Both the position numbers and the translations under genes were made by a program. Positions 1 through 23,249 of a DNA stretch of 64,000 nt are shown in pieces. The DNA is from an uncultured Bacillota bacterium (lineage in GTDB: Bacteria; Bacillota; DTU025; MWDF01). The stretch spans positions 22,831-86,830 of the forward strand of contig CAWGMK010000007.1 in the NCBI GenBank assembly GCA_963823655.1. Direction: 5' to 3'. The notes beneath the pieces were generated by a model that had not been told where the DNA came from, did not search any database, and saw only the letters and a list, made by a program, of their open reading frames with translations. Position 1 is the first letter of the stretch. Every line of letters starts with the position of its first letter.

Positions 1-10
1 TCTTGCCATA

Positions 11-265
11 ATGGGGAGCTATATTTCCTCAGCACAGGACAATACAATTGAATACCCCAATCCATTCAATAGTCCATTACTGGGGACAGTTATATATTTG
101 TCGTTCGCCGTCTTGTTCGGTGCAGCTGTCACTGGGTTAATTGCTGTTATCAAAGAAAAGGAGCGCTCTATTCTCGTTTACTTCATTATTCCGACCGGTA
201 TAGTAGTCACTTTGTTTGGTTTGATGCTTCTTATCGGAGGACTAATTGGACCGCCAAATCAGTGA
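11..265 (+). CDS. small hypothetical membrane protein (2 predicted TM helices); may be the C-terminal part of a gene starting before the window
   Basis: 84 aa ORF with two hydrophobic stretches (LLGTVIYLSFAVLFGAAVTGLIAVI, ILVYFIIPTGIVVTLFGLMLLIGGLI). No recognisable family. Confidence 0.3.
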   Translation: MGSYISSAQDNTIEYPNPFNSPLLGTVIYLSFAVLFGAAVTGLIAVIKEKERSILVYFIIPTGIVVTLFGLMLLIGGLIGPPNQ

Positions 266-502
266 ATGTATCTGTCTTATCAATGCGTTGGATCAAGTTA
301 TCGCTGGAATACTCAATGGAGTCTTGAACTTGTGTGTTCACTAAGGCTTATTGCAAGTTCAAGGCAAGCATTAAAAATTCTTAATGCTTGCCCACATCAG
401 TTGCCTCATGTCTTAAATCATTTTCACAGACCATGCTGCGTGTTCCTGCCTCTCCTGTCACTGCTGTTTTGTGCATCAAAACGCTCCAGTGTTATCCCTA
501 TG

Positions 503-2149
503 CTACTGCGGTATTTTGAAACTGTATCCGCATATAGTGCAGGTATAGGTGGTATATCCGCCTTCTGTGAAGCTAGGAGGAGTCACAACACTGATGAACG
601 TGCAGGCTTCGACTTCCCTATGGCTTGTGTTGTTTGAGCAGATCCGGCTGTGTGTACTCCTTTGATCTGATGATGCAGCGTCATGTGACCAGTCGCTCCA
701 AGCGTGCCCCAACGCTTCCGAGGTATCCATATAGCTGTATTTACACCTCGAGCAAGTATGTATGGTATATCCGCCTTCAGTGCAGGTCGGTGGGGTCACT
801 AAGCTGTTGAACGTGCAGCTTTCCGTTTCCTTGTGATTCGCGTTACGGTAGCAGATTCGACTGTGAGTGCTAGCAGAGCCAGCCGTAGCAGCATCATGCG
901 CCCAGTTTCTCCAAGCATGCCCCAATGCTGCAGTCGAAGCGTCTTTGTAACTGTATCCGCATCCTGTGCAGGTATGGGTGGTATATCCCTTTTCTGTACA
1001 GGTCGGCGGAGTCACAACGCTGCTGAATGTACAGACTCTCAATTCTCTGTGACTTGTGTTGCGCGAGCAGATTTGGCTGTGGGTGCTCCTTCTGCCAAAT
1101 GATGAGCCAACATGGACCCAGGCACTCCAGCTGTGCCCTAAAGCTGCAACCGGGGTATCTGCATATGTGTATCCGCATACTGTGCAGGTATGGGTGGTGT
1201 AGCCGCCTTTAATGCAAGCCGGCGGGGTCACAACGCTGTTGAAAGCGCAGCCTTCGGTTTCCGTATGGCTTTGATTATTGGCGCAGACCCTGCTGTGAGT
1301 GCTCGTTTCGCCTGATGCACTGTCATGTGTCCATGCGCTCCAGCTGTGCCCCAATGCTGCAACTTGGTTATCCGTATAATTGTATCCGCATATCGTGCAG
1401 GTATGAGTAGTATATCCGCTTTCGGTGCAAGTCGGCTGAATTACAGCGTTGTTGAAAGTGCAGCCAACCGTCTCCGTGTGATTTGTGTCACGGGAGCAGG
1501 TCCGGCTATGGGTGCTCGTCACGCCTGTCGTTGCAATGTCATGGGCCCAATTGCCCCAGATATGCCCCAATGCACTAACAATATTGTCATCATAATAGTA
1601 TCCACATCCTGCCGTGCAAGTGTGACGTGTATATCCTCCCTGCGTACAGGTTGGCGGAACGACAGCTGTCACTGCCATGGTATGGGCTTCAACATTATTT
1701 GTCAGACCGCAAACGCAGGCATGCCAGTGATTTGTGCCATTGTATGCCCAATTAGCATATTCATGTTCAATATTCAGCGTATAGCTAAAAGAATTGGCGT
1801 CAATGTATGGCCAATCCACCCCGCTTGATACAAGCCTGGCAAGAAATAGGCTATAGTAATGTCCACTTTCAGGGAGATTTCTAACGAGATAAGGAGGATC
1901 CGTGAATGTGTAACCAGGGTTTATTGTGGCATACCACTGACTCCATGTCATTGGGCTGCTATATTGCATTTTTACATGTGTGTTTGGGTCAATCCCATCC
2001 ACAGTAAAAAGGACCGATACGTTCTCACCGTGTTTAACGGGGCTAGGATCCTGCACGAATGTAACAGTATATGCCGCTGCAGCGGCAGGCATGAGCAGGA
2101 TACACGCCATAAGCAAGCCGACCACGAGAAGCGGTGATCTTTTTTGCAT
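503..2149 (-). CDS. secreted Cys/His-rich tandem-repeat protein (signal peptide + N-terminal domain + about six ~72 aa repeats)
   Basis: 548 aa ORF. N-terminal signal peptide MQKRSPLLVVGLLMACILLMPAAAAAY. About six tandem repeats with the pattern ALGHxWxxWxHDxAxxGxxSTHSRxCxxNxxHxExxxCxFNxVVTPPTCTExGYTTHTCTxCGYxY, roughly 6 Cys and 8 His per repeat. No family recognised. Confidence 0.6.
   Translation of the reverse strand: MQKRSPLLVVGLLMACILLMPAAAAAYTVTFVQDPSPVKHGENVSVLFTVDGIDPNTHVKMQYSSPMTWSQWYATINPGYTFTDPPYLVRNLPESGHYYSLFLARLVSSGVDWPYIDANSFSYTLNIEHEYANWAYNGTNHWHACVCGLTNNVEAHTMAVTAVVPPTCTQGGYTRHTCTAGCGYYYDDNIVSALGHIWGNWAHDIATTGVTSTHSRTCSRDTNHTETVGCTFNNAVIQPTCTESGYTTHTCTICGYNYTDNQVAALGHSWSAWTHDSASGETSTHSRVCANNQSHTETEGCAFNSVVTPPACIKGGYTTHTCTVCGYTYADTPVAALGHSWSAWVHVGSSFGRRSTHSQICSRNTSHRELRVCTFSSVVTPPTCTEKGYTTHTCTGCGYSYKDASTAALGHAWRNWAHDAATAGSASTHSRICYRNANHKETESCTFNSLVTPPTCTEGGYTIHTCSRCKYSYMDTSEALGHAWSDWSHDAASSDQRSTHSRICSNNTSHREVEACTFISVVTPPSFTEGGYTTYTCTICGYSFKIPQ
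506..1672 (-). repeat. in-frame tandem DNA repeats (period about 216 bp) encoding the Cys/His-rich repeat units
   Basis: Repeated nucleotide blocks are visible across 520-1670, for example recurring ...cagtcggtggggtcacaa.../...caggtcggcggagtcacaacgctg... segments, mirroring the protein repeats. Confidence 0.6.
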
Positions 2150-2750
2150 AACCTATCTCCACCTTTCTATAAAAGTCATTCATGCACAATAACAGCAATA
2201 CGTTAATACGAATCAATGATTGGTCAGCCTAGCTGAAACCAACCTGAAGAATAGTTCTTGTTTTCTTATTGATCCTTTTTCTCATATCCCTTATCAACAT
2301 CACGAGGTGAAGATATTATGCAAATATGATAGATTGTGAAGAGCTGCCGCAATTGCCTCAACTGAATGTCATCGCTAATTGCTGCTGTAATATTCGTCAT
2401 TAATATCTGAAATCATTCTGATAATTCTGAAAATGTTTTAATGCCGGAATTTTTCAATTTGAGTCTTTATCGAAATTTGATAGCAGCCAAGAATGTCTGA
2501 TCTGATGTTTTCATTACGCGATGTATAAAATAATTCTGTAAGAGTCTGGTAGTTTTTAACCCTATTGGCTTCGGCGGTGATATTCAATTTGTTTCTGTTC
2601 GTGAGATCCATTCTTGTATCTCTTGAGACCATACATTCCGGCTACTTAACAGTATTCAAATCCTAATGCTTGCACCCTTCTTGATAAATGCATTTTTATA
2701 TTCACGTTCGCTTGTCTAGGTAAAGGCGAATAAGAGGGCGCTTTTTGCTT

Positions 2751-2847
2751 TGCTTGACCGTTTGCTTGACCACTAGCCTACAATGCAAAACAAAACCGCC
2801 AGCATACTGGCGGTATCTAGCTCTATTGATGCCGAAGGCGGGATTCA
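2751..2847. repeat. about 95 bp intergenic repeat element, copy A: tandem GCTTGACC(N5)GCTTGACC + CACTAG + conserved hairpin ACCGCCAGCATACTGGCGGT + GGCGGGATTC
   Basis: About 90% identical to copy C at 5485-5580. The hairpin is followed by TTTGTTTTG on the minus strand (terminator-like). On the plus strand there is a TTGACC-N19-TACAAT promoter-like arrangement. Confidence 0.7.
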
Positions 2848-2968
2848 AATGACTTCAATCCTTTGTATCCATCTAGTATCCCTAATTCCATACAGTCCAG
2901 CTATTTGACCCCTATTTGAATCCTACTACGTCCATTTAGTTCATATAATCCACTGGGTATCACCACGT

Positions 2969-3013
2969 CTGCTTGACCGTTTGCTTGACCACTAGATCCA
3001 GCACTCCTGCTGG
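2969..3013. repeat. partial third copy of the repeat element (CTGCTTGACCGTTTGCTTGACCACTAG) followed by a different hairpin, CCAGCACTCCTGCTGG
   Basis: Exact 27 bp match to the 5' part of copies A and C; the sequence diverges after CACTAG. Confidence 0.65.
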
Positions 3014-3124
3014 CTTGCTTAGGAGGTGTTCGATCATTAATCTTGCAATATCTATGGAAGCTGCCGTTATAGCTTTCGTTTTGCTTGATCAAATGCGAAT
3101 TCTCCTAGGATCCCTATCTCATCA

Positions 3125-3934
3125 TTACCCCATAGTTGAAGCATAGGATTTTATACTCCATGCTTCACATATTTTGACTACATCCTGCTCGTTAGGCGCC
3201 CAGACCTCATCTGTTTTGCTGTACCCAATTTCCTTTTCAATGCGGCTTATACGACCCTTATCTCTCATCCTTTGGCCCGTTTCGCCCAAGTATGCAAAGG
3301 ACCTCTTTATATTTCCAGCGCTTGCTTTCATCCATTGGTGATATTCGACGATCCTATTTGTGCTATAGGCATGTGCTTCACTAAACTCTAGGCTTAGGGT
3401 CCTTATCAGGTCTTCTACATCATAATAGCAAAGGGCAAATGCTTGAAATGATGCTATGATAGTCCACTTGTTAACGCAAGGTAGTATTAAGGCGTAATCA
3501 ATTGCATGATTACCGAATACCTCCTCTAAGCCATATTGGCATTGGACGCTCTTCACATCCCCTTTCAAGAGGATGCGTGCTAGTTTATCGTTGTCAGCAT
3601 CCTTTACGGCCAACCAACTGGATTTATAGGGTAATCCGATATCCCTTAATTCAATCGATTTGCAATAAGAATCGGTAGTAGATATTGCTATAGAACGCTC
3701 TAGCGCTTCTACTACTTCAGTCGGATTGCTTATATCGCAAACAATCGGTTGAAGGTATAGATAGTAGTTGTTCTGCTTCTTCGTTGGCCAAAATGTTATT
3801 GAATTTCCTGATAGTTTAACATGCACATACTTCTTACCACGTTCCGCATTAGCCTCGCCTTTGACTTCATAGAAAATCTCAACAGGACTTTCAGTGTCCC
3901 AATATGCTGCCTTGACATACGGCAACCTATCCAT
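3125..3934 (-). CDS. hypothetical protein (269 aa), low-GC island
   Basis: Long ORF in AT-rich DNA with no recognisable motif. Overlaps the upstream 60 aa ORF by 8 nt, so the two are either an operon or one gene split by a frameshift. Confidence 0.5.
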   Translation of the reverse strand: MDRLPYVKAAYWDTESPVEIFYEVKGEANAERGKKYVHVKLSGNSITFWPTKKQNNYYLYLQPIVCDISNPTEVVEALERSIAISTTDSYCKSIELRDIGLPYKSSWLAVKDADNDKLARILLKGDVKSVQCQYGLEEVFGNHAIDYALILPCVNKWTIIASFQAFALCYYDVEDLIRTLSLEFSEAHAYSTNRIVEYHQWMKASAGNIKRSFAYLGETGQRMRDKGRISRIEKEIGYSKTDEVWAPNEQDVVKICEAWSIKSYASTMG

Positions 3935-4109
3935 ACTCGTGTCTGGCTACATCGAAGAAGGCACTGATGATTTCTTCGTCGGTGAAGTTCGGTTCTATTC
4001 GAATTATTGGCAGGGTTGGTAGTATCTCATTATCTTTCGTTTGCTTTAACGTTACGATGATGCTTTGACCATCTGCCGTGTTGTAGCAAATCTCAAATTT
4101 CCCTTCCAT
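3927..4109 (-). CDS. hypothetical small protein (60 aa), possibly the N-terminal fragment of the 269 aa protein
   Basis: 8 nt overlap with the start of the downstream ORF. No family recognised. Confidence 0.35.
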   Translation of the reverse strand: MEGKFEICYNTADGQSIIVTLKQTKDNEILPTLPIIRIEPNFTDEEIISAFFDVARHEYG

Positions 4110-4202
4110 TTCGATCTCCTATTTGGGCAATACTGATAAGCCCCAAGATATGGTACCAGTTCTCCGGGTGAAGGTCAAAGTTTTCGATTGCTTCAAGTCG
4201 GT

Positions 4203-4499
4203 CTATAGAACATCTACCGGTATGTATTGGATGCCAACGATGCCCTCCTTAATAAGTGCATCGACAACCGGTTTCTTAACAACCACCATTCTCCCATGAA
4301 GTCTCTCTTGGGTAAGGTTGAAATCCTTCGTAGCCACAATTCCTGTTTTCGAGAAACCTATAGTCTTATACGTCCAGTAATCGGTCGTTCCTATAATACC
4401 GCAGCTGCAATTTCTTCTTCTCTCTTCTGGCAATATATTGGCCAGGTTGGTACATAATGTTTGAAAGCTTCTTGACACTGCCCTTGTTTCGACATTCAT
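4203..4499 (-). CDS. hypothetical protein (98 aa), low-GC island
   Basis: ORF flanked by the 13 bp direct repeat TCGGTCTATAGAA (about 4199 and 4514). No family recognised. Confidence 0.35.
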   Translation of the reverse strand: MNVETRAVSRSFQTLCTNLANILPEERRRNCSCGIIGTTDYWTYKTIGFSKTGIVATKDFNLTQERLHGRMVVVKKPVVDALIKEGIVGIQYIPVDVL

Positions 4500-4970
4500 T
4501 TATAAAAAAGCGGTACTCGGTCTATAGAAAAGTCAAGAGGACAACTATAGCTATGTTTGCAATGGTTTTTATGATAAACATGATTTCTTCGACTCGTACT
4601 CTGCTAATCTCAAGTTCATCAGCTATCTTAGTAATATACGGTTTATGCTCAGTGTATTTCCATTTGGTCCATATTAAATCCTTAAATCTCTTGCCGTTAA
4701 ACCAATTGATATAGCTAAAATCAATACTTTGAAAATAAAAGCTGCGGGCCTGTCATCATTCCATTTCCATATGGCAAGAATATACCCTGTAGATAGGAGA
4801 TACTATTCCCGTCCATGCTGATATGGTTCTTTTCATTCCTGAGTTCTTCCTATTAAAGAACCATTTGTTTAGAACCAAATCATTGCGGCTTTCATTATCA
4901 TCATAAGTTATCCTCATCAACCTAAAAAACCCGAACTCGCTACTTAGGATTAGGAAGATACCCATGGAAT

Positions 4971-5306
4971 TTATTGTATCCTTGCAGCCCAAAATCCTAG
5001 TGACAAAAAACTTACAACTAATATGAAGGATGCGACAACATTAAACGACAAGTAATCAGAATATACAAATTCCTTTCCAGTTAGTTCGCCTATCTTTAAC
5101 CCGGCTTCGTAATTGTTACATGTAGCTGCTCTTTCATACCATTCAATACCTATCCCTATATGCATTAGTCGTTCTGTCATTACCTGGAAGTGGTAAGAGA
5201 TATAGTAATCGCCAAGCTCCTCCATGCTTTGAGGGTCGCCACTCTGAGCTTCTCGAATTAATTCTTGAAGCGCCTTTTGTTCATCCTCTTCAACGTTCTT
5301 GTGCAT
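4971..5306 (-). CDS. Sel1/TPR-like repeat protein with C-terminal transmembrane anchor
   Basis: GDPQSMEELGDYY...GIGIEWYERAA...YEAGLKIGEL resembles Sel1-like repeats. The C-terminal VVASFILVVSFLSLGFWAA stretch is hydrophobic. Confidence 0.4.
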   Translation of the reverse strand: MHKNVEEDEQKALQELIREAQSGDPQSMEELGDYYISYHFQVMTERLMHIGIGIEWYERAATCNNYEAGLKIGELTGKEFVYSDYLSFNVVASFILVVSFLSLGFWAARIQ

Positions 5307-5484
5307 TCCATGACCCCCAGATTCAATACAGGTTTTGGATAAGTACTCAATATACCTTCTTGAGCAATCTGCCGCTTCCTTCCAATACTAGTGTTTATTG
5401 TTTTATCCAATCGAGTTTTCTTCATCCATTGAGTCGAATTCTGCCGGCAAAATATACGGCAATTAGAGGGGGGTTTTTATACTC

Positions 5485-5580
5485 TGCTTGACCGTTTGCT
5501 TGACCACTAGCCTATATGCAAAACAATACCGCCAGCGTACTGGCGGTATGAAACCCCATTGATGTTAATGGCGGGATTCT
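5485..5580. repeat. about 95 bp intergenic repeat element, copy C (direct repeat of 2751-2847)
   Basis: CTGCTTGACCGTTTGCTTGACCACTAGCCTATATGCAAAACAATACCGCCAGCGTACTGGCGGTAT...GGCGGGATTC. The hairpin has a compensatory loop change (cata to cgta). It lies about 100 bp downstream of the minus-strand gene 5658-6443, consistent with that gene's terminator. Confidence 0.7.
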
Positions 5581-5657
5581 GCAACAAATCTCTCGCTGCA
5601 TATATAAGCTTTCTAATACCCAGTAAAAAGATACCAACCAAACGCATTCTTATAGGT

Positions 5658-6443
5658 TTATTTCGGCTGCATTACTCCGGCGAACACAAGCCATGCAAGG
5701 ACAGATTTTGCAACCAGACTCAAAACTATATAGGCGCGTTCACCATAGAGATAATCGGCCCATCTGCCTATCTTCTTGTATTGAAGGACCATATTGATTG
5801 GGAACAGGTTGAAGAAGACGAAGTATGATCCCACTATTGCGTAGGCAAACCACGGGACCTTTGACAAGTCCGAGTTGCCGAAAGCGTGAAGGAATACTAC
5901 TACCCAAGGGCCTATTCCTGCAATTGAGCCAAATACAAATGGACTCCAGTCGGTTTTCTTCTTAAATTGGTTGAGCTCTTCCATCAACAGGCCGAAGAGG
6001 TTCATCGAGGCGTTTACAAGGAATATGAGCAGGAGCGCGCCGACGTCATACACTCCGAAGAGCTGGGCGATGAGCAAAATCATAAGAGACGAGCTTAGAG
6101 CATACTCGAACCATCTAAATCTGTTTATGCCCTTCTCCAAACCCTTGTTGTATTCCTTATTGCCCCAAGGGGAGACAATTATGAAATGGGCGAGCGCCGA
6201 AAGAAGCAGGAAGCAGGCAACCAGCGCCGCGAAAGGAAGGTCCGCAATCTTCTTCGAATTGGTCACAAGCCTCATAAGCGTAGTATCGAAGGTTAGAAAA
6301 TTGGACCAGACCGGTAACTTGAAGCTGGAGAACTTATCCACCAGGAGCGCAAGCGACAACATCGCTGCTCCTTGAATGAAGTGCAGGAAACCCATGAAAA
6401 GGTTGAATTTCTTAAGGGAGGAAAGCTCGGTTTCTCTATACAT
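5658..6443 (-). CDS. heliorhodopsin-like 7TM protein (putative retinal-binding)
   Basis: 261 aa, about 7 hydrophobic helices. Contains FRWFEYALSSSLMILLIAQ, VNASMNLFG and GERAYIVLSLVAKSVLAW. The Lys in VAKS is at the position of the Schiff-base Lys in heliorhodopsins, and the sequence resembles heliorhodopsin 48C12 as I recall it. Confidence 0.6.
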   Translation of the reverse strand: MYRETELSSLKKFNLFMGFLHFIQGAAMLSLALLVDKFSSFKLPVWSNFLTFDTTLMRLVTNSKKIADLPFAALVACFLLLSALAHFIIVSPWGNKEYNKGLEKGINRFRWFEYALSSSLMILLIAQLFGVYDVGALLLIFLVNASMNLFGLLMEELNQFKKKTDWSPFVFGSIAGIGPWVVVFLHAFGNSDLSKVPWFAYAIVGSYFVFFNLFPINMVLQYKKIGRWADYLYGERAYIVLSLVAKSVLAWLVFAGVMQPK

Positions 6444-6508
6444 TTTTGCATACTCCTTTTTAGTTAATTCGTACGTGCCTTACAGCCATTTGCCTGATTG
6501 GAAAGACG

Positions 6509-7483
6509 CTACAAGGCTTCCGAAATCACCCGAAGCGCGTTCTTATAAGCTACCTTCTCGATCACTTCGCTGCTTAGCCCGTCTTTCTGAAGCTTATCGA
6601 AGAGAAGTCCCATCTTTGAGCTGTCCGATACTTCTATGTTGCCATCTATCCCGTCGAAATCGGATCCTAGAGCCGCAATATCAGTTCCTCCCACATCAAT
6701 CATGTGCCTAACATGGGCTGACATCATTTCCAAAGTGCTCTCTTTACCGGCAGCATCCGGGCTGAGGAATATCGGCGCGAAATTGAGCCCTGCAACACCG
6801 CCGTGGTCGGCAAGGACCTTTATCATGTTATCGGTCAAATTCCTTCGATGCGGGCTGAGGGCCCTGCAATTGGAGTGCGATGCTATGAAAGGCTTCTTCG
6901 AAATTTCTGCTACATCGCTGAAACCGCCGTCAGAAAGGTGTGAGACATCCACAAGCATCCCTATGGAGTTCATGTACTCTATTGCGGCTTTCCCGAAGGG
7001 CTTCAACCCTTTTTGCATGATTTCGGCGTCTTTCGAGTTGGGATATCCGAAGCAGTTCTCATAGTTCCACGTAAGAGAAATCAACCTCACTCCGGCTTCA
7101 TAGTAACGTTCAATATTCTCAAGCTTGCCCTCTACGCTCCTGCCATCTTCAATTGTCAGAAATGCGGACATCTTACCTTTGCTCTCATTTTCCAGCATCT
7201 CGGAAGCATTGCCGGCGAAGCTAATGATATCGGCATATTTCTCCAGATTCATCTTGAACGTCGTGCTAAGCTGCCCGATATATTCTTCATCGGATACAAA
7301 TTCAACGTTAGGAGCGTGTTTAGCAATCTCCGGCGAGAGCATGTACATCGCGAAAAACTGGGCAAGCTGCCCTCCTTGCTTCATCCGCGCGAAATCGACC
7401 ATGCCGTCCATCTCGTACATATCCTGCTTCTTGAACAGGAATGTCCTCATTAATGTATCGCAGTGCAGGTCTATGAATTTCAT
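6509..7483 (-). CDS. membrane dipeptidase, peptidase family M19
   Basis: Motifs IDLHCDTL, LTWN, VDVSHLSD and ASHSNCRAL are typical of renal-dipeptidase-family enzymes. Confidence 0.85.
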   Translation of the reverse strand: MKFIDLHCDTLMRTFLFKKQDMYEMDGMVDFARMKQGGQLAQFFAMYMLSPEIAKHAPNVEFVSDEEYIGQLSTTFKMNLEKYADIISFAGNASEMLENESKGKMSAFLTIEDGRSVEGKLENIERYYEAGVRLISLTWNYENCFGYPNSKDAEIMQKGLKPFGKAAIEYMNSIGMLVDVSHLSDGGFSDVAEISKKPFIASHSNCRALSPHRRNLTDNMIKVLADHGGVAGLNFAPIFLSPDAAGKESTLEMMSAHVRHMIDVGGTDIAALGSDFDGIDGNIEVSDSSKMGLLFDKLQKDGLSSEVIEKVAYKNALRVISEAL

Positions 7484-8450: not shown

Positions 8451-9634
8451 TCATTCAATGCCCGCAAACCAGAAAGGTGCCGATGAATACAGCTTCATCA
8501 TGGTCTTCAAGGCAGACTCATCAATTGTGAAGCAGGGATTATGTATGTCTTTCGAATACTCCGCTGCCTTATTCGCAGCCCCTATTAGAACGAATGTGCC
8601 GGGCACTTTCTTGAGAAAATATGTGTAATCCTCGCCAACCATCAAAGGCTTCGCCCTCAGGACATTCTCCGCTCCGAGCACCCTTGCCGCCAGCTTGCCC
8701 ATCTCCTCCGTTATCTTGACGTCATTGACTAGCGGCGGGTAATGGCATATGTACTCTACCTCGGCGCTTGCCCCCATCGAGGAGGCGATGCCCGTCACCA
8801 TGTCAATAATCGATTTTCTAACCATATCCCGAACCTTCGTATCGAAAGTCCTGACCGTGCCGGTAATATTGGCAACATCGGCGATAACGTTGAACCTGTA
8901 TCCTGCATTGATCGTTCCTACTGCGACCACGCAAGGGACTCCCGGCTCGGCCTTCCTTGAAACAATCGTCTGCAGCGCATTCACAATGTTGGCAGCAATC
9001 GGGATAGTATCAATGGCGTTGTGGGGCGCTGCCGCATGTCCTCCCACGCCCGTAATCTTTATCCTGAACTCGTCAGGGGCCGCAAACAGAGCCCCTTCTC
9101 TAAGCGCCACCTGCCCCGGGAGGTAATCACCCAAGACATGCCCCCAATGATGATATCGACGCCTTCCATCGCGCCCTGCTCTATCATAGGTATGGCGCCG
9201 CCGGGTCCCTCTTCTGCCGGCTGAAAGATGAATTTCACGGTTCCCGGCAGCTCGGACCTGAACGAGGAAAGAAGCTTTGCCGTCGAAAGAAGGCCCGCAG
9301 TATGCGCATCATGCCCGCAGCCGTGCATCCACCCTTCATGCTCTGATTTGAAGGGAAGGCCCGTCCTTTCGGTTATTGGAAGGCCGTCCATGTCGGCGCG
9401 TATGGCTATCGTACGCCCCGGCAAGCCTCCTTTTAATACCCCAATGACACCGGTGCCGGCTACTTGCGTTCGGACTTCGTCTAGCCCCAAGCCTTTGAGC
9501 TTCTGGGCTACGTATGCCGACGTCTTGAACTCCTTTAGCCCTGCCTCAGGCCACTTGTGCAGCGCCCGCCGAGTTTCGACGGCATCCTGGAAGATCTCCT
9601 CGCTTTTTGCAGATATCCTCTCATATACAGACAT
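8451..9634 (-). CDS. M20D family amidohydrolase (N-acyl-amino acid amidohydrolase / hippurate hydrolase-like), apparent frameshift
   Basis: The N-terminal ORF 9059-9634 has the HGCGHDAH metal-binding motif. The C-terminal ORF 8451-9134 continues the M20D dimerisation/C-terminal domain. The two overlap by 76 nt in different frames. Confidence 0.75.
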
Positions 9635-12127: not shown

Positions 12128-12842
12128 GGCCTATGAAACCTGATAGAAGCCTCAATCCGGCCTCGCCGCTCTTCTCCGGATGGAACTGGACTCCGATGAC
12201 ATTGCCCTTTCTTATCGCTGCGGCTATGGTGGGCCCGTCCCCCGGAAACTGGCCATCGAGGGGAGTTCTAGCGGCAACTATCGCCTCATCATCCGGGTAA
12301 GCCGCAAAGGAATGGGTGAAGTAGAACTTCTCGTTATCCTCATCCATCAGCAGACTGAGGGCGTCCCCCACCCTGAAGACGTCGTTCCAGCCTGTATGAG
12401 GCACTTTGAAAAATGACTTCCCGCAACCATCGTGTGGTTTCTGTCCATTCGCAATCTCCCAGGCATCGGATTTGCTAATCCCAGCCTCAAGCTTGCGGTT
12501 CACGCCCCTGAACAGCGAAAGGCCCATCTGCCCCCTGCTCTCCTCGCTTATATCTAGCATAAGCTGCATCCCAAGGCAGATGCCAAGAAGCGGCCTTCCG
12601 GAATCTGCGAAATCGGGCACGGCAAGGTCCATACCCGAGCTCCTCATGCTCTCGCAGGCAGCGCCGAAGGCTCCCACTCCCGGCAGCACAAGCGCATCCA
12701 GCTTGCCAAGCTCAGAAGGTTCATACACTATGACGGGCTTGGCATTGCATACCTCAAGCGCCCTTGCGACGCTAGTCAGGTTGCCGATGCCGTAATCCAG
12801 TATGCCCACCAGTGGTTTCGAATTGGCACTCATCCTATGCAC
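12105..12842 (-). CDS. hisH: imidazole glycerol phosphate synthase glutamine amidotransferase subunit
   Basis: VGILDYGIGNLTSVARALE, LVLPGVGAFG, Cys in GICLGMQ, and HPEKS. Confidence 0.9.
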   Translation of the reverse strand: MHRMSANSKPLVGILDYGIGNLTSVARALEVCNAKPVIVYEPSELGKLDALVLPGVGAFGAACESMRSSGMDLAVPDFADSGRPLLGICLGMQLMLDISEESRGQMGLSLFRGVNRKLEAGISKSDAWEIANGQKPHDGCGKSFFKVPHTGWNDVFRVGDALSLLMDEDNEKFYFTHSFAAYPDDEAIVAARTPLDGQFPGDGPTIAAAIRKGNVIGVQFHPEKSGEAGLRLLSGFIGLGRGADA

Positions 12843-13444
12843 CCCTTGCTGCTTGAGGCCCCCGTCCTTTGCGAGTCCGGTTCAAGCGCCGCCCTTAGAG
12901 CCAGCGCCAGCCCCTTGAAGGCGGCCTCTGTCGAATGATGGCGGTTATCGGACTTCAAAACATCAATATGCAGGGTAATGCCTGCCTCCTTGGCAAAGGC
13001 TTTCAGGAATTCTATAAGATCCTCATCCATGTCAGGCGCGTCAATGAAAGCGCCGCCTCTTCCGCTCACATCAAGGCTCACTTGCGCAAGAGATCCGTCC
13101 ATAGGCGCCAGGGCCCAGCCGAAGCGCCTTATGGCAGCTCCTCTGGAATCTAGTTTGTCCGCATCTTGTCCGCTTACTGCAAGCCCCAGCGCCCTGCCAA
13201 GGCTAATGCCCACATCCTCGCAAAGGTGATGATATCCGGTCTTCAGGTCGGCCTGAGACTCGATTGTTATATCCATTAGGGAGTGGAATGACAATTGAGC
13301 CAGCATATGGTCGAAAAAGCCGAAGCCCGTATCTGCAGTAAGAATGCCCTGTCCCTCTATCTTCACGACCGCCTTGATGGCAGTTTCCCCGGTCTTCCTC
13401 TCATAACAACCCGTGCGAGCCATTGAAATCCCCTCCTGAAACAA
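12830..13444 (-). CDS. hisB: imidazoleglycerol-phosphate dehydratase
   Basis: ERKTGETAIKAVVKIEG, FFDHMLAQLSFHS and GYHHLCEDVGISLG, the IGPD signature. Confidence 0.9.
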   Translation of the reverse strand: MFQEGISMARTGCYERKTGETAIKAVVKIEGQGILTADTGFGFFDHMLAQLSFHSLMDITIESQADLKTGYHHLCEDVGISLGRALGLAVSGQDADKLDSRGAAIRRFGWALAPMDGSLAQVSLDVSGRGGAFIDAPDMDEDLIEFLKAFAKEAGITLHIDVLKSDNRHHSTEAAFKGLALALRAALEPDSQRTGASSSKGCIG

Positions 13445-13564: not shown

Positions 13565-14585
13565 TTATCTGGTTTTTAAAGCCGCTCTCACTGCATCAAT
13601 GAGCCGCCTGTTCTCCGACGCAGTACCCACCGTTACCCTTATCAAGTCGGGCCGGTCCGCGAACGCCCGGGTAAGTATCCCCATTGAAGCCAGCTTCGCG
13701 TTGAGCCTGCACCCCTCATCCCCACCTAACTCTATGAGAAGGAAGTTGCAGGAATCGCCCCTTACCTTAAGCCCCATCTTCATAAGTCCTTTGGCCAGGT
13801 AATCCCTGCCATAGGAGTTGTCGCCGACGTATTCTCCAAGGGCTTCTTCTTCATCAAGGGCCGATATGGCGATCTCCTCGCAAATGGACGGCACATTGTA
13901 GGGAAGCTTGGCCTTTCTTTAGCAGTTCAGCCATCTCTTCGCCCGAGATGCTGTAGCCCACCCTGATGCCCGCAAGCCTCCTGGCCTTCGAGAAGGTGCG
14001 AAGGATTACTGTCCTGCCGGACGCCATATCGGACATGTCCGAGCCGCAGAACTCCGCATATGCCTGGTCTATTGCTACATACGCCTTTGATGTCGGGATC
14101 TTCGACCTTACGAACTTCTCCATGCTGTCGCCCGTCGGGTTATTGGGGACGCATAGCATGACAAGGGCCCTCTCATCAGCCAGAGCCTCATCCAGCGCGC
14201 TCTCGTCCGGAAGGCCGTCGAACCCAAGGCCGATTGCCTCAAACGGCAGGCCGCAGATCGAAGATATGCCTCTGTACATGGAAAATGATGGCCATGGTGA
14301 TACTACCCGATCCACTTTCCCCCTTAGGGCGAGCATTAGGACCATGATCATCTCGTCGGAGCCCACTCCCACCACGAAGCGCGAAGCCTCAATGCCGAAC
14401 CTCTCGGAAAGCCTTGCCCGCAGCCTGTCCGAATCCATGCTCGGATACCTGTTGAATGGTATATCCATAAGAGAGCCCAGTATGCGAGCTTTCGCTCCAG
14501 CAGGGACATCCAGGCTGCACTCATTGGCGTCCAGCTTGACGGGCTTAAATCCTGCCACTCTTTCTGATTCCGCATCAAGCGGGGA
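13565..14585 (-). CDS. hisC: histidinol-phosphate aminotransferase. The N-terminal part is read in-frame with hisD (no intervening stop) and the C-terminal part is in another frame (frameshift near 13860-13895).
   Basis: KLDANECSLDVP...RYPSMD...NNPTG...RTFSKARRLAGIRVGY (PLP Lys region) in the long ORF, then ...LLIELGGD...RVTVGTASENRRL in the 109 aa ORF. Confidence 0.7.
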
Positions 14586-15806
14586 GCCGGCGGCAAGCCT
14601 TACGCTTACGGAAGATGCATGCCCGAAGAGCCCCTCCTCCTTGGCCAGAACTACGGCTGCCGGGCCTTCCGCCAGGAAGCCGTCCTTGGAGTACTCCACC
14701 ACGTTAACCGCCTTCTGGAAGTCCGAAGTTGAGAGCGTTCCCCTGAACCTCGCCGTGCCCATCGTAGGAAGCACATGGCTGGGCCCTGCGACGTAGTCTC
14801 CCATCGCCTCGGCGGAGTAGTTACCTACGAATATCGTCCCAGCATTAGATGCCATCTGTGCGAGGGCTGCCGCACCTTCACAACACAGCTCCAGGTGCTC
14901 AGGCGCAAATTTGTCCGCAATTCCTATTGCCTCTTCAAGCGATCCGGCCATTATGCATGCGGAATAAGACTCCAGGGCCGCTCTTGCAATCGCCTGCCTT
15001 GGGGCAATTAAGAGCTGCCTTTCCAATTCATCCAATACTTTTCCAAGCACTCCGGCCGAAGTGGTTACAAGCGTGCAGCAGGCCAGCTCGTCGTGTTCCG
15101 CCTGTGCGATGAGGTCGGCGGCTATAAATGAGGGGTTGGCCGTCTCGTCCGCCACTACCATGAGCTCGCTGGGCCCTGCCAGCATATCGACCCTTACATC
15201 GCCCATTACAGCCCTTTTGGCCGCGGTTACATAGGCGTTGCCGGGGCCTGCGATTACATCAACCGCAGGTACGCTCTTGGTGGAGTATGCGAGCGCGGCT
15301 ATGGCCTGGGCCCCTCCTATGCGGAAGATCCTGTCCACGCCGGCAATTTCAGCGGCTGCAAGCGTTGCCTTGTTTATCGAGCCGTCCTTGCCGGGAGGCG
15401 TGCACATATAGACATTGGGTACTCCGGCTGCCTTCGCAGCCAGGCCGCACATCAGCACAGTCGAAGGGTATGCCGCGCTTCCGCCCGGTACGTAAATGCC
15501 TGCGGACTTCAAGGGCACCATCCTCTGGCCCAGCCTTGTGCCATATCCGTCCATGTAGGACCAGGATGCCTGCCTTTGTGATATGTGGAAGCGCGATATG
15601 TTGGCCGCAGCAAGCTCCAGAGACTTCCTTACACCTGCGTCCAGGCTTAGAAGCGCCTCTTTTGCTAACTTCATATCGAGTTCTATATCCTGCTCCCCCA
15701 TATCGGGCCAGTCGAACTTTCGAGTGAGTTCAACAAGCGCCAAGTCGCCATCTGCCCTTACTTTCGAGATGATCTCCAATGCTGTGCCCATGAAACTTGG
15801 CGCCAT
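14586..15806 (-). CDS. hisD: histidinol dehydrogenase (no stop codon before the hisC-like sequence in this assembly)
   Basis: VPGGSAAYPSTVLM, QAEHDE, GPSHVLPT and ...HASSVSVRL, the HisD C-terminal signature, at about residue 400 of the 650 aa ORF. Confidence 0.85.
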
Positions 15807-16538: not shown

Positions 16539-17533
16539 TCTTCCTGAACCCCCTCAGGCCTGATTTCCATTAACATACCCATGTCCAACGCGAAGCCTAT
16601 TCCGCCCTCATCCGAGCCCAGGGACCTCATAAGCCCGTCGTACTGGCCGCCGCCTAGCATCGGCCTTCCGTAGCCATTTACGTAGGCTTCGAAGACTGGG
16701 CCGTTGTAGTAATCCAAGGGCCTCAGAAGGCCGAGCTCGAAGGCGATGCCAACCCCTTTTGATACCATCCTCGCGCCATCGAGAAGAAGTGATGCCCTGA
16801 GTGCCTCTTCGGCAAGCTTCGTTGCCGGATACTCGCGTACGATGCCCTCCAAGCCCTTGATCGCGGCCTCATCGCAATTCGAGGGAATCAGCTTACGCAG
16901 CATGGATGAAGCCTTGTTCCCTTTGCCGTATTTGGTAAGGGCGGACATTGCTGAACTTATGTCATGGACCATCAGGGCCTGCCTTAGCTCGTCCATCTGC
17001 AGGCCGTCCAGTCCGCTTTCAAGAAGCAGTTGGTCTAAAAGGGATATGTCGCCTATTCTAAGTTGCACTGCTTCCTTGGCGAAGCGGCAGATGCCAATCG
17101 CGGCGCCCAAAGCCTCAAGCCCCGCCTTGAGCCCGTCGTGTCCGTAGATCTCGGCGCCGAGCTGAAGATCCTGCCTCGATATGGCAAGTCCGTCCCTATT
17201 GCCGGGCCTTCTGAATACTGGCCCTGTGTAGAAGAGCCTTAATGGCCTCGGTTTTGAAGCAAGCTCCCTTATGGCAAGCTTCGCGCACGGCCTGGTCATA
17301 TCGGAGCTGAGCCTGCCGATGAAGCCTCCGGGCAATGCGAACTTGATAGGCCCGCCAGGCATGCCCGCCTCATCGTTATTGTCAGCAAGCTCGATTATCG
17401 GAAGCCTTACTTCGTCGAAACCCAGGCTCTCCAGCATTGAAGCAAGCGCCGCCTCGGTCCTTCTTAAAGCGCCTGCCTCCGGGGGGAGAAGCAAGGACAA
17501 ACCATCCATTACATCCTGCAAGTACAACACCAC
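16535..17533 (-). CDS. hisZ: ATP phosphoribosyltransferase regulatory subunit (HisS paralogue)
   Basis: Class-II aaRS-like catalytic core (LRLFYTGPVFR, YYNGPVFE) without an anticodon-binding domain. Sits immediately upstream of the short hisG. Apparent GTG start. Confidence 0.8.
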   Translation of the reverse strand: MVLYLQDVMDGLSLLLPPEAGALRRTEAALASMLESLGFDEVRLPIIELADNNDEAGMPGGPIKFALPGGFIGRLSSDMTRPCAKLAIRELASKPRPLRLFYTGPVFRRPGNRDGLAISRQDLQLGAEIYGHDGLKAGLEALGAAIGICRFAKEAVQLRIGDISLLDQLLLESGLDGLQMDELRQALMVHDISSAMSALTKYGKGNKASSMLRKLIPSNCDEAAIKGLEGIVREYPATKLAEEALRASLLLDGARMVSKGVGIAFELGLLRPLDYYNGPVFEAYVNGYGRPMLGGGQYDGLMRSLGSDEGGIGFALDMGMLMEIRPEGVQEE

Positions 17534-17577
17534 TCTTTATCGCTTTAGTTAGGTAAAGTATTAAAGTGCACGAATAA

Positions 17578-17607
17578 GAAGATACTATCAACTCAGAAAA
17601 GAGTCAA
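17578..17607 (-). promoter_or_regulatory. candidate sigma-70-like promoter of the his operon (TTGACT-N17-TATCTT on the minus strand)
   Basis: Hexamers read directly from the sequence about 45-75 nt upstream of the hisZ start. Weak -10. Confidence 0.25.
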
Positions 17608-17640
17608 GGAAATGCCTGTATTTATATCGGTGCAGAAAAG

Positions 17641-17675
17641 AAAAGGCCGCCATGCAGGCGGCTTTCAATTTTGTT
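17641..17675. terminator. bidirectional Rho-independent terminator-like hairpin upstream of the his promoter
   Basis: AAAAGGCCGCCATGCAGGCGGCTTTCAATTTTGTT: GC stem flanked by an A-run 5' and a T-run 3', so it can work in both orientations. Confidence 0.45.
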
Positions 17676-18562
17676 GGGTTTATGAGAGGCTTGAGCCTTT
17701 AACCTCCAGGTTGCCAGATGCCCTTCCGGCTTGACCATCCTCGAAAATATCTGGCTCTTGGATAGAAGCCCCGGTTATTTGTGGTAGCAAAAAGTGACTA
17801 TGTTCCTCGGCAGTACATCATTACATTTATTGTATTTTAAAAATCGTTGATTTTCTACAATAAAACCATTAATATTGGTTTAGGTGGTGAAAATATGATA
17901 AAAACTAACGCTATGCTAAGGCACGAATTAAAATCGTATGTGAACCCGATGGAAAACATACGACGACTGGCCAAAGAAGGAGAAATGGTTTTCTGTTGTC
18001 AGAGGGTTATATGAAACGGACAGGAGTATTCCTGGTTACTATCTTGCCCCAATCATTTCGGATCCTTCATATCTATCCTTTGAGTTTGCATTAGCATACT
18101 ACTCCTATTTGAAGCTGCATATAACTTTACATTGGCTACTTTTGAAAGAAAAAGGCAAAGCAATAATACACCATACGGCAGCTTCACTATCGTGATGTAC
18201 CGAGTGAAGCATGCTGATAACTTCGTACAGGACCGGGTACGGTTTTAAAATTGCGTCTGCCGAGAAGGCAATATGCGATGCGCTCTCCAAAATGCCCCAC
18301 TAATGAATAGAAGTGAATTGGAGCGCATGTATTTGAGGATCTGAGAATTGATGAAAGCGATTTCTTCCATCTAAACATGACAGATCTTCTTAATACATCC
18401 GCCTTTTTAAGTCGCAGGAACACAAGTTGCTACAGGTATCTATCAAAAGGAGAATGAAGACGAAGTAAATCATCCGCTTTATGCATAGAGCTACTGGTCA
18501 GTTGCGCGAACAGGCAAATGCGGCAGGCTTATCCAAATGATTAAGCCGGGAAGTGAAATGTT

Positions 18563-18898
18563 ATGATGCTCGTCGAACTGCTTATTCTGTCACCTATAGG
18601 CGCAGCACTCATCTTGTGTGGCTTGCTAATCTGGAAGAAGAACAGGATAGATTTGATACATTCATATCACTATAAAAGAGTCACAGAGGAGAACAAAAAG
18701 GCGTATTCAACGGCAATGGGCAAAGGCGTCCTGCTCATGGGTATCGGAGTGTTACTGACCGGTATTGATCAATTACGTAACGGGAGCTGCTTCCGGCTGG
18801 ATTTGTTTCGTGTTTTTCTTCATCTTAGGGCTCACGTTGGTGCTAAGAGCCCAGAGCAAATTCAATGGCGGGCTTTTCTAACATTCCCGATACGTTGA
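18563..18898 (+). CDS. small membrane protein (2 TM), function unknown
   Basis: 111 aa with two hydrophobic helices (LVELLILSPIGAALILCGLLIW, GVLLMGIGVLLTGI). Confidence 0.35.
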   Translation: MMLVELLILSPIGAALILCGLLIWKKNRIDLIHSYHYKRVTEENKKAYSTAMGKGVLLMGIGVLLTGIDQLRNGSCFRLDLFRVFLHLRAHVGAKSPEQIQWRAFLTFPIR

Positions 18899-18944
18899 CT
18901 GAATTGACTGCATCTTCCTTTTAGAAATATCGAGTATATGTATG

Positions 18945-19274
18945 TTAGATCTCCCCTTTTTCCTTCAGCCTTGCTATGGCCAGCTTATATCCCCCCGCAC
19001 CAAATGCGAGGAACCTTTTGACCCTGCTTACGGTGGCGGAACTTGCCCCCGTATCCTTACCTACTTCAGCGTACGTCCTGCCCTTTTCCAGGCTCAGAGC
19101 GATCTCGAACCGGTCGCTAAGTTCGCTTACCTCCGAGATGGTGCAGAGGTCCTCGAAAAAGGCGTAACATTCATCGACGTTTTCAAGCGTCATTATTGCC
19201 TTGAAGAGCCTATCTGTCTTCGCGCGGTCCACATTGTCCTTAAGCGCCATGTAACAGGCCTCCTTTTGGCACAC
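18945..19274 (-). CDS. YerC/YecD family TrpR-like DNA-binding protein
   Basis: ELSDRFEIALSLEKGRTYAEVGKDTGASSATVSRVKRFLAFGAGGYKL matches the conserved YerC/YecD (Trp-repressor-like) core. Confidence 0.7.
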   Translation of the reverse strand: MCQKEACYMALKDNVDRAKTDRLFKAIMTLENVDECYAFFEDLCTISEVSELSDRFEIALSLEKGRTYAEVGKDTGASSATVSRVKRFLAFGAGGYKLAIARLKEKGEI

Positions 19275-19627
19275 ATATGCTTCATCTTGTTAAAGTATAT
19301 TTAAATCTCCGGGCATTACAAATCCATTAGATATTGCTGTCTGTTGTGGATCCGGAACTATTTGCCAAACTTGCTGAGATACGGCTTAATAGACTCATTT
19401 CGTAAATATCATTTTCCTGCATGAATAGCCTTCAGCTTTTCGAACGCCCTCCTGTAACCGTCAATTTGATCGGACCATTCAGCAAGCTTCAGGCAGGGGA
19501 ACTGGTCGCATTCGCTGCAGTTGCCTAAGCCTTCGTCATCCATACATCTGAATAGCGATCTGAATAGGTTTTCTTGCAATCCTACTTCTGAAATCTCGGG
19601 ACTTTTGGCTTCACATCATGTTTTAAA

Positions 19628-20698
19628 CTACTGACTCTTGATCTCTTGGTCTGTGTTCTTTATATAGGAAGTGCTTTTTCCTGCTCCAACCTTAATAATG
19701 TATCCTTCCTTGAGGAGCGAAGCCAATGCCAACTCGATTGTTGATATGCTGATGTCTGGAAATTTCTCTGATATCGACTTCTTTGGATAGTTTTTGCAAC
19801 GTGGTATCAAACAATGCACGAATTCGATCTGGCTTGGACAGACTACGATTCAGCATTAATTCGACACGCATCGAAAATTCCTTGTATGCACCCAGTATGA
19901 TTTCCAAGTAATACTTCACGAAAGGGAAGTAAGTGTTCGTGAGACTGTGCCAGCCTTGAGAACTGGCTTGCAGCACATCGTAATAGGTTTCCTTAGTTTT
20001 CTCAATCAGCATTTCAAGGCTGATATATTTTCCAACGATGTATCCTGACCGATATAAAAGCAGTAAGGTTAACAGCCGACTCATCCGCCCGTTTCCGTCA
20101 GTAAACGGGTGAATGCAGAGAAAATCCAGAATGAACATCGGAATCAACAATAACGGGTCATACTTTTCAGACTGAATTGCATTGATGAAGGCCATTGTCA
20201 GACAATCAACCGCTTCCGGTGTTTCAAAGGCCGGCAACGGTGCAAATCGGATCTTGCTGACACCTTGTGATCTGTTTCGGCAATAGCATTGTCTGCATTT
20301 TTGAATCGTCCGCCCATGGAGGAAGGGTTAAATTGATATAGATCCCGATGCAACTGAAGAATCGTATTCGTTCGCGGGACAATGTAATCGTAGCTGTCGT
20401 GGATCAGCGCCAGGACTTCTCGATATCCAGCAATTTCCTGTTCTGAGCGATTTCGCGGCTCGGACTTTTCGCTGACCAAAGCCTGCAATCGTTCATCTGA
20501 TGTGTAAATGCCCTCAATACGATTGGAAGCACCAGTGCTCTGAATTTTAGCAACCTCAAGCATGGCATTTAGCACATCAGGCTTGGCTTCGATATACAGC
20601 TCTTGCTTGCCTTTGTGCTCATGAATAGCAGAAACCAAATTCATAAGTTCGTAATGGAGCAGTTCATCTGGTATTTTACTGTATTCAAACTCCCTCAT
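19628..20698 (-). pseudogene. Fic/DOC family protein (adenylyltransferase-type) interrupted by two frameshifts
   Basis: Three consecutive ORFs cover one Fic architecture: 20198-20698 is the N-terminal region, 19692-20237 is the Fic core with HPFTDGNGRMSRLL, and 19628-19819 is a C-terminal winged-helix-like tail (ELALASLLKEGYIIKVGAGKSTSYI). Frame breaks fall near 20230-20290 and 19790-19820. Confidence 0.55.
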
Positions 20699-21396
20699 CT
20701 ATTACATCCTTTCTGCACAAGGATTAGTTTACTGCATTATTGTACCATTAAATTATGCAGAAAGGAATATGATTAGGCAGAACGATTTGAATGATATAGC
20801 TGCTATAAAGTATATCTGCATAATTCAACAGTTAAATAGTGCAGTAAAACATATGCGTTAGCAGAACTACCGCACAGCATGCTCCCCTCAATGGCTTTCT
20901 TTATACCCTCATCCTCTTTTAGCCAGCCTTCTTTCCGGAACCAGTCAATAACCACCTTAGCTCCAGCCAGGTCTTATCCGCAAGGCGTATCTCACATGAG
21001 CCGCAATCCAGTCCGCAGGCAGCCATCATGATTGGCTTATCCATGTCCTCCACCGATGCGCACTTGATTTCAGGCTATTCATGTTTCATCTTTGGGATGC
21101 TGATTCCATCTCAGTATCAAGGTTTATGAACGAATTCAGCAACAAGGCCTCCATCATAGGATCTATGCTTGAAACGAACAACAAACGAATTATCTATATC
21201 AAACCGAAGATCTCGCCCAAAAGGCTGGAGGAATTGATCGTAAGCAACTGGAATCTACTTTCAGACAGGGATTTTATGCGAAAGCTATCTTGCGTGTTAA
21301 CCAAGAAGCCTTCTAATCGTGCGAATTTCATAATTACATACACCATATCAGTAATTAACATAAATGGTATATAATCTTTGACGATTGAGGCATTTA

Positions 21397-21723
21397 GATG
21401 TATATTGAATTTGTTAGCAAGCGCTTGAAAGAGCAGATTGAAGATGCCAAAGCGATGAACAAGAGGTACGGCGAGGACCGAGCCCGCGAAATATGGAAGA
21501 GGCTTGATCAAATCAGGGCCTTTAACAACATCGGGGATCGCTTAAATCGGGTATTGGCCATGTGGAAATGTTGAGAGGGAATCTTAAGGGGATTATGTCG
21601 ATTAGAGTTGACAAGAAGTTGCGGATTCTGTTTGAGCCTGTTAGTGAAAGCGGGCACGCCAATGACGATGTATTCGCATTAAACAGAATAAGGATCTTGG
21701 AGGTGGGCGGGTATCATGAATAG
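21397..21723 (+). pseudogene. HigB/RelE-family toxin-like gene with a 1 nt frameshift (about 21545-21560)
   Basis: Frame A gives MYIEFVSKRLKEQIEDAKAMNKRYGEDRAREIWKRLDQIRAFNNIGD..., frame C gives ...SGIGHVEMLRGNLKGIMSIRVDKKLRILFEPVSESGHANDDVFALNRIRILEVGGYHE*. The C-terminus matches the HigB signature (G..SIRV...RI.F......V...DYH). The stop overlaps the ATG of the downstream HTH gene (cATGAATAG). Confidence 0.5.
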
Positions 21724-22747: not shown

Positions 22748-22795
22748 TGGACTTCTCAACCATGGCGTTTTCCAAGAGATGAGATATCAGGTTAA

Positions 22796-23249
22796 TTGAT
22801 AATTTCCGTGAGTATTCAATTCGGACAAAAGGACGGCTTCATAGTGATAAATCTAAGGGAGATCAATGCAGACAACTGGCGCGTACTGACCAAGCTGAAA
22901 GTCAAAGACTGGCAGGCCCCATTTGTCGCCAGCAACGGGGACTCTATCGCCAGGGCGCATTATGTTAAAGATAACTTCCCTCTCGGCATCTATGACGATG
23001 AGACTCCAGTGGGATTTTGCATGTATTCGATAAGCCCTAAGAGGCGAAATCTGGATACTTAGGCTGATGATAGCCGCAGATTATCAATCTAAAGGCCGCG
23101 GTAAGGAGGCCACAATCAAGCTTATAGAAATGCTCCTTGATAAGTTCGGCAAAGTGCCAATATTCATCAGCTTCGACCCTGCAAACGAATGGGCCAGGAA
23201 GATTATATGCCAGTTTGGGTTTCGTGAAGGACGACAGGGAAGCGGATGA
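22796..23249 (+). pseudogene. GNAT family N-acetyltransferase with an internal frameshift (about 23040-23065)
   Basis: The 88 aa ORF plus a +1 shifted continuation (...GEIWILRLMIAADYQSKGRGKEA...) restores the GNAT acetyl-CoA-binding motif (Q/R-x-x-G-x-G/A). Confidence 0.55.

Follow-up and report, generated by a model that had tools for sequence, protein, structure and literature searches.

Two heliorhodopsins (HeRs) with structures in the PDB serve as references for the protein described here: 48C12, of actinobacterial origin (6su3, 6uh3), and TaHeR, from a Thermoplasmatales archaeon (6is6). As a family, HeRs are characterised by bound all-trans retinal, absorption near 550 nm, and a slow photocycle. 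To our knowledge, neither 48C12 nor TaHeR shows net ion transport. Other HeRs are described together with a partner. Binding with a regulatory effect is reported for glutamine synthetase (AbHeR), for photolyase (TfHeR of Trichococcus flocculiformis, a photolyase helper whose operon holds a class 2 CPD photolyase and DUF2238) and for an ABC exporter (OmrDE, with OcHeR). The premise of the original prediction, that HeRs have no settled function, needs correcting where these three partners are concerned and is to that extent out of date. A 2025 preprint makes a case for HeRs as carotenoid-antenna proteins instead of sensors pure and simple (bioRxiv 10.1101/2025.11.27.691015).

We find that the open reading frame (ORF) at 5658-6443 of the window (the whole 64-kb stretch of DNA that was analysed) encodes a genuine, intact heliorhodopsin of a large, already annotated Firmicutes-type clade; it is one of >5,000 close homologues. 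The original prediction, which had called the product a putative heliorhodopsin and left its minus strand unstated, is borne out by the Pfam HeR profile that it had itself proposed as a check: PF18761 aligns end to end (profile positions 1-242 of 242; 336.4 bits, against a gathering score of 26.7 bits; E = 1.1e-100). The 261-aa protein also scores 320.4 bits against the NCBIfam HeR equivalog NF038020 (cut-off 100), and its PDB sequence matches are heliorhodopsins in six cases out of six (E = 4e-56 to 5e-51). Every test of family membership that could be applied gave the same answer.

Alignment to 48C12, likewise proposed beforehand, places K246 of the query on the Schiff-base lysine K241 (K238 in TaHeR) and E113 on the TM3 counterion E107 (E108 in TaHeR). 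S242 corresponds to S237 of 48C12, the SxxxK motif of TM7 reading S242-L-V-A-K246, and the histidine pair H21/H86 to H23/H80 of the proton-accepting cluster. These five residues (K246, E113, S242, H21, and H86) are invariant across the 34 clade members aligned, including the TM7 lysine on whose conservation the assignment had been staked, and the three motifs quoted in the original prediction are found at residues 109, 143, and 234.

The AlphaFold2 model of the protein (pLDDT 84.6, pTM 0.79) has seven transmembrane helices and, between TM1 and TM2, the long beta-hairpin typical of HeRs (strands 42-53 and 58-70). The top ten Foldseek matches of this model are all HeR structures (E = 3e-17 to 2e-13, TM-scores of 0.82-0.87), whereas type-1 rhodopsins begin at E = 3e-3 with TM-scores of about 0.5-0.6. 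No competitor came to light among other 7TM families, which had been named as the alternative, and the Pfam match and the Foldseek ranking rule out both these and a type-1 rhodopsin. A positive-inside count over the predicted helices gives 14 Lys and Arg residues on the N-in (cytoplasmic) side versus seven outside, the latter falling to two when the 36-residue hairpin loop is left out; this distribution fits the inverted topology, in which the N-terminus would be cytoplasmic.

In family and fold the query resembles 48C12 (phmmer E = 1.6e-55, Foldseek TM-score about 0.83, 44-46% identity), and the Schiff-base lysine, counterion glutamate, SxxxK motif, histidine pair, and fenestration residues all align. 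It differs in its host (an uncultured Bacillota rather than Actinobacteria) and in having M218 at the position of Q213 (TaHeR also has Met). TaHeR provides both the best PDB sequence match (E = 4.4e-56) and the best structural match (TM-score 0.87, rmsd 2.5 Å), with E108 and K238 aligned as above, but is archaeal and 40-42% identical to the query. A carotenoid-binding "two-antenna" motif has been defined for HeRs, in 48C12 numbering, by opposing aromatics at 162/206, non-bulky residues at 166/210, Gly 169, and Asn 207 (bioRxiv 10.1101/2025.11.27.691015). This fenestration motif is complete in the query: F169, S173, G176, F211, N212, and P215 correspond to F162, C166, G169, F206, N207, and A210 of 48C12. 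Five of the six residues are invariant in the clade, the exception being S173.

The closest functionally studied relative of the query is probably TfHeR. Carnobacteriaceae HeRs (from Alkalibacterium and Lacticigenium) share 67-71% identity with the query, and the TfHeR termini read from cloning primers (MKEITTEK..., ...MQP) fit the consensus of the query's clade; judged by these relatives and termini, TfHeR probably belongs to the same Firmicutes HeR clade. It differs in its operon, since neither the class 2 CPD photolyase nor DUF2238 is found in the 64-kb window. The AbHeR-glutamine synthetase and OcHeR-OmrDE pairs offer a further parallel, a lone HeR domain beside a metabolic or transport gene and possibly co-transcribed with it. 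Here, however, the neighbour is an M19 dipeptidase, which lies outside the ten recurrent HeR-flanking groups (PMC11109279) and adjoins HeR in two related lineages only, and the MsbA-like ABC exporter that is the commonest neighbour in the clade (10 of about 80 loci) is absent from the query locus. Many clade members of about 390 aa (69-73% identical; P0035, P0047-P0049, P0053, and others) carry an N-terminal MORN-repeat domain (PF02493), the MORN-HeR fusion that is known from anaerobic Syntrophomonadaceae.

The HeR ORF is intact in five related contigs: the window, L001, L082, L083, and L084. L082 has 96-97% DNA identity to the window and L083 about 89-92%; L001 is 89-92% identical at the DNA level from the his operon through M19 to HeR, its HeR protein being 98% identical. 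Compared with L001, HeR has a dN/dS of 0.025 (dS 0.36; five conservative substitutions) and M19 one of 0.078. The GC3 of HeR (0.61) is like that of neighbouring native genes. Because dN/dS is so low and the ORF is intact in all relatives, HeR is an old resident of the locus under strong constraint, and not island-borne. A recent horizontal arrival together with the low-GC island downstream was rejected, since GC3 is native-like and homology with the relatives spans HeR and ends only past it. A HeR pseudogene is excluded by the dN/dS.

A ribosome-binding site precedes the HeR start codon (Table 1), which is placed where the clade consensus has its N-termini. Transcriptional read-through from M19 is plausible, because the 65 nt between the two genes contain no terminator-like or stable structure. 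In L082, L001, and L083 this spacer is about 160 nt long (L082 9838-10000; L001 7173-7332), that of the window being 97 nt shorter through a deletion flanked by short direct repeats (CAGGCnAATGGC). Neither a promoter nor a terminator nor a stable structure is predicted in the segment that is missing, and the longer spacers of the three relatives have no terminator-like signal between M19 and HeR. On the other side, the first terminator-like hairpin past the HeR stop codon lies inside a repeat copy (copy C), just where the original prediction had embedded the terminator (hairpin 5549-5526 within 5467-5579). Its stem comprises 10 bp, six of them GC, with a folding energy of -19.2 kcal/mol (z = -3.5; 0 of 200 shuffled sequences as stable), and the same hairpin is present downstream of HeR in L082.

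Table 1. Features of the heliorhodopsin locus, in window coordinates
Feature	Position	Strand	Basis or remark
Full repeat unit: core at both ends, ~190 nt spacer, hairpin at 2795-2814	2729..2995		
Strain-specific low-GC cargo: ORFs of 111, 98, and 269 aa	2996..5332		Absent from L082
Repeat copy C, truncated unit: GGCGGGATTC, hairpin, core TGCTTGACCGTTTGCTTGACCACT	5467..5579		
Terminator-like hairpin ATACCGCCAG-TACG-CTGGCGGTAT with tail TGTTTTGCAT	5516..5549	minus	~109 nt after HeR stop
Heliorhodopsin CDS, 261 aa, ATG start	5658..6443	minus	PF18761, NF038020, PDB matches, Foldseek, dN/dS
Schiff-base Lys K246 codon	5708-5706	minus	48C12/TaHeR alignment
Counterion E113 codon	6107-6105	minus	48C12/TaHeR alignment
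M19-HeR spacer, 65 nt	6444..6508	minus	Without terminator-like or stable structure
Ribosome-binding site AAGGAG, 9 nt upstream of ATG	6453..6458	minus	Sequence inspection
M19 dipeptidase, 324 aa, without signal peptide	6509..7483	minus	PF01244, E = 5.6e-84

The nearest named relatives of the host DnaB are uncultured Bacillota, Firmicutes, and Clostridia MAGs (59-79% identity), and the window contains the gene order S6-SSB-DUF2232-L9-Lon-like-DnaB, which we take to be Firmicutes-like. An anaerobic lifestyle is likely, since related contigs carry genes for an NADH-linked [FeFe]-hydrogenase and an aldehyde:ferredoxin oxidoreductase (AFOR) and the window a multihaem cytochrome gene. HeRs are reported as a rule from monoderm hosts; diderm Firmicutes lineages exist, and the sole documented diderm exception to the rule, Sphaerochaeta UBA6084, has a HeR of the same clade as the query (L004, 75% identity). 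We also observe HeRs 66-76% identical to the query on contigs whose labels, which come from MAG binning, are those of nominally diderm groups: Halobacteroidaceae, Kosmotogaceae, Muribaculaceae, and Spirochaetales (L009, L035, L053, L055, L057, L005, and L008).

Several genes of the window appear split or fused: M20 at ~9130-9145, purL at 29670-31980, hisD/hisC at 13565-15806, and ArsP at 51973-53000. At the M20 break one G of a G-run is lacking, in L001 the gene is broken at a different homopolymer, and L082 and L083 both have M20 intact at 394 aa. For these reasons the split genes are probably indel errors of long-read assembly rather than pseudogenes, and M20 is unlikely to be a true pseudogene. 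A second low-GC patch (17500-23100), located between the his and pur operons, has defence-type genes: one for a SoFic-like Fic protein, split into two ORFs (19692-20698), and one for a protein combining HTH and M78 (21716-22747; PD-Lambda-2_B match, E = 6e-33).

Our main reading, to which we give a probability of roughly 80%, is that the locus encodes an intact, maintained, native heliorhodopsin that serves as a slow-cycling photosensor or regulator rather than a pump, with no dedicated partner readable at the locus. By homology, the protein would be a seven-helix membrane protein with a cytoplasmic N-terminus, with all-trans retinal bound to K246 (TM7, SxxxK) through a protonated Schiff base, E113 (TM3) as the counterion, and H21 and H86 in the proton-accepting cluster. 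Light would isomerise the retinal and move the Schiff-base proton to this internal cluster with no net transport, and a long-lived photointermediate would then alter the cytoplasmic surface and so modulate one or more partner proteins. The present analysis itself establishes the family, the fold, the key residues, purifying selection, the signals for translation, and a terminator. Chromophore, photocycle, absence of pumping, and regulatory output are all taken over from characterised HeRs, and on that analogy sensing or regulation with a slow photocycle, rather than pumping, is the most likely role.

The window has no genes for SQS_PSY, a CrtI-type oxidase, lycopene cyclase, Blh/BCD, or RPE65, so that the chromophore would have to come from genes outside these 64 kb or from the environment. 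The Blh route to retinal depends on O2 and is closed to an anaerobe. For both reasons, the formation of holoprotein in vivo is uncertain.

As predicted, HeR lies between an M19 dipeptidase (Peptidase_M19, E = 5.6e-84), its upstream neighbour on the same strand, and a repeat-flanked low-GC island, recognisable by the drop in GC and by the repeat copies. Farther upstream are an HpcH/HpaI aldolase, an M20 amidohydrolase, and a complete his operon. The expectation that this context would be informative does not hold up, the neighbours being conserved only among close relatives. In a forward linkage test (tblastn of M19, HpcH, M20, and HisIE against 81 HeR loci), M19 was recovered in L001 only, and it is near HeR in none of 80 other genome loci of the HeR clade (55-77% identity). 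A reverse test that began from M19 orthologues revealed L084 (GCA_964545975.1), which has a 74%-identical M19 and, after it in the same orientation, a HeR with 74.4% identity to that of the window, although both flanks are wholly different. The gap between the two genes is 695 nt in L084 and contains a 105-aa ORF with a signal peptide; a 12-bp GC-rich terminator-like hairpin stands directly after M19. No HeR accompanies the M19 orthologues at 62-64% identity, and four further contigs with HeRs 73-78% identical (L088-L091) have unrelated neighbours and no M19. The M19-HeR neighbourhood is common to L001, L082, L083, and L084, and the adjacency is limited to the window's genus and one sister lineage, L084. 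The most fitting reading is synteny passed down in a narrow lineage.

When the four genes to either side of HeR were clustered without bias at about 80 loci of the clade, no fixed partner emerged, and no family was present in more than 10 loci. The commonest neighbours are an MsbA-like ABC exporter (10 loci), an OYE flavin reductase (eight), DUF3159 (six), and an OmpR regulator (six), followed by a histidine kinase and a CHAP-domain protein (five each). This lack of a dominant partner agrees with published surveys, one of which counts ABC exporters and alpha/beta hydrolases in its ten recurrent HeR-flanking groups (PMC11109279), while another describes two-component genes near HeRs (PMC8612252). 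Within the 64-kb window, we found none of the ten published partner groups (PMC11109279) and no histidine kinase or response regulator.

The alternative that survives best, although we regard it as improbable, is that HeR confers light regulation on the adjacent cytoplasmic M19 dipeptidase, and possibly on an M20-HpcH-M19 cluster for peptide and amino-acid catabolism, with which it would be co-transcribed. The two genes are co-stranded and close together with nothing terminator-like between them, as is also true of the longer spacers of the relatives, but in L084 a terminator-like hairpin and an ORF part M19 from HeR. Without a signal peptide, M19 would be on the same side of the membrane as the K/R-rich cytoplasmic loops of HeR. 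Characterised HeRs bind the products of neighbouring genes, and a peptidase occurs in one class of actinobacterial HeR transcripts; peptidases as a group, however, fall outside the ten recurrent flanking groups (PMC11109279). M20 peptidases adjoin HeR in Proteiniclasticum, directly upstream of it in two genomes (L064 6622-7743, L069 6695-7786). In L063 an M20 peptidase (12204-13298) lies about 6 kb from HeR, and in the window M20 is two genes upstream; such recurrence of peptidases near HeRs is weak and statistically unconvincing.

The only pointer to light regulation of M19 is the survival of M19 followed by HeR in L084, at ~74% protein identity, amid complete rearrangement of the flanks, which leaves some room for a functional link. 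The equal divergence of the two proteins nevertheless fits simple co-inheritance, and HeR and M19 each occur without the other, the former at the 80 clade loci and on L088-L091 and the latter among the orthologues at 62-64% identity. A HeR-partner operon is recognised by a co-oriented partner that recurs across independent lineages, and M19 does not recur in this way. If light regulation of M19 were true, a peptidase would be a new class of HeR partner, and light sensing would be tied to peptide catabolism in a chromophore-scavenging anaerobe.

We consider it somewhat less probable again that HeR is mainly a two-chromophore light harvester, with an exogenous xanthophyll at the lateral fenestration, or a proton conductor like some viral HeRs. 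The fenestration motif is complete, with nearly all of its residues invariant in the clade, and an exogenous pigment would be in keeping with a window free of carotenoid genes; carotenoid binding by HeRs, however, rests on docking and sequence motifs and not on measured energy transfer (bioRxiv 10.1101/2025.11.27.691015). The transporting viral HeRs all belong to a group without the fenestration motif (bioRxiv 10.1101/2025.11.27.691015), and the bacterial and archaeal HeRs characterised to date are not known to show net transport. An energy-harvesting role is also implausible for a host that looks anaerobic and of dim habitat, as judged from the hydrogenase and AFOR genes. That HeR is in decay, or left without a function, in a genome unable to supply retinal, as the missing retinal and carotenoid genes in the 64 kb and the apparently frameshifted neighbours might suggest, is effectively refuted by the signal of selection, the ORF being intact in the window and its four relatives, the changes conservative at a dN/dS of 0.025 with all key residues invariant, and the neighbouring frameshifts apparently assembly errors at homopolymers that differ among assemblies, with M20 intact in L082 and L083.

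The heliorhodopsin read here as a native photosensor or regulator adjoins a site of strong variation. The DNA downstream of HeR is low in GC (39-42% over 2-6 kb, versus 55-58% for the his operon), and the ORFs of this island have a GC3 of 0.37-0.44, versus 0.61 for HeR. The 27-nt core of the repeat occurs in three exact copies in the window (2750, 2969, and 5484), where none is expected by chance. The whole unit is about 250-265 nt long, with the core (TGCTTGACCGTTTGCTTGACCACT) at both ends and ~190 nt, GGCGGGATTC, and a hairpin inside. Between the copies, L082, which is 96-97% identical to the window on both sides, has a different 1.5 kb (ORFs of 170 and 213 aa) in place of the 2.3 kb of the window, and L083 and L001, despite a mutual identity of 96%, diverge directly after the repeat. 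Four related genomes thus have four different cargos at this repeat-bounded site (window 2729-5579; L082 10866-12844; L083 10072-15475; L001 10617-13021). The 213-aa cargo ORF is common to L082 and L083, at differing distances from HeR.

The cassette site contains no integrase and no tRNA that could serve as an integration site, and the left boundary of the cargo is found 130-150 nt past the repeat core. This makes a classical att-site integrative element unlikely; the cargo more probably is replaced by homologous recombination between conserved flanks than integrates at att sites. HeR only borders on this hotspot and takes its terminator hairpin from the repeat. An Rfam scan of the window at gathering thresholds returned no matches.

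The cargo of the window (2996-5332) has no Pfam, PHROG, or PADLOC matches. Its largest ORF (3125-3934, minus strand, 269 aa) has homologues in 611 representative clusters that have in common a C-terminal domain of ~165 aa with conserved Trp, Gly, and Glu. Among these homologues there are a few weak DUF6928 matches, and one carries a CdiI immunity domain. The AlphaFold2 model of the ORF is confident (pLDDT 86), with no significant fold match in the PDB. The product may be an immunity-type protein. Farther along, on the minus strand (503-2149), we note a 548-aa protein in which a signal peptide precedes a Cys/His-rich module of ~71 aa, repeated in tandem about six times with divergence among the copies (consensus TCT..GYT.HTC..CGY...ALGH.W..W.HD...STHSR.C). 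Its sole match, zf-C2H2_3rep, is weak and sub-threshold, and its gene has 96% nucleotide identity in L082. Tandem Repeats Finder found none in positions 1-6000, the 213-nt repeats of this gene being too diverged.

The identification of HeR is correct yet ordinary: standard pipelines would already call the protein "heliorhodopsin HeR" through its NF038020 match, and the finding has little importance past correct annotation. The survey of about 80 loci warns against reading the function of a HeR off a single locus. The M19-HeR pair, kept in two lineages, is a cheap and testable candidate for a further HeR partner, and the cassette site next to it may be more interesting than the rhodopsin itself.
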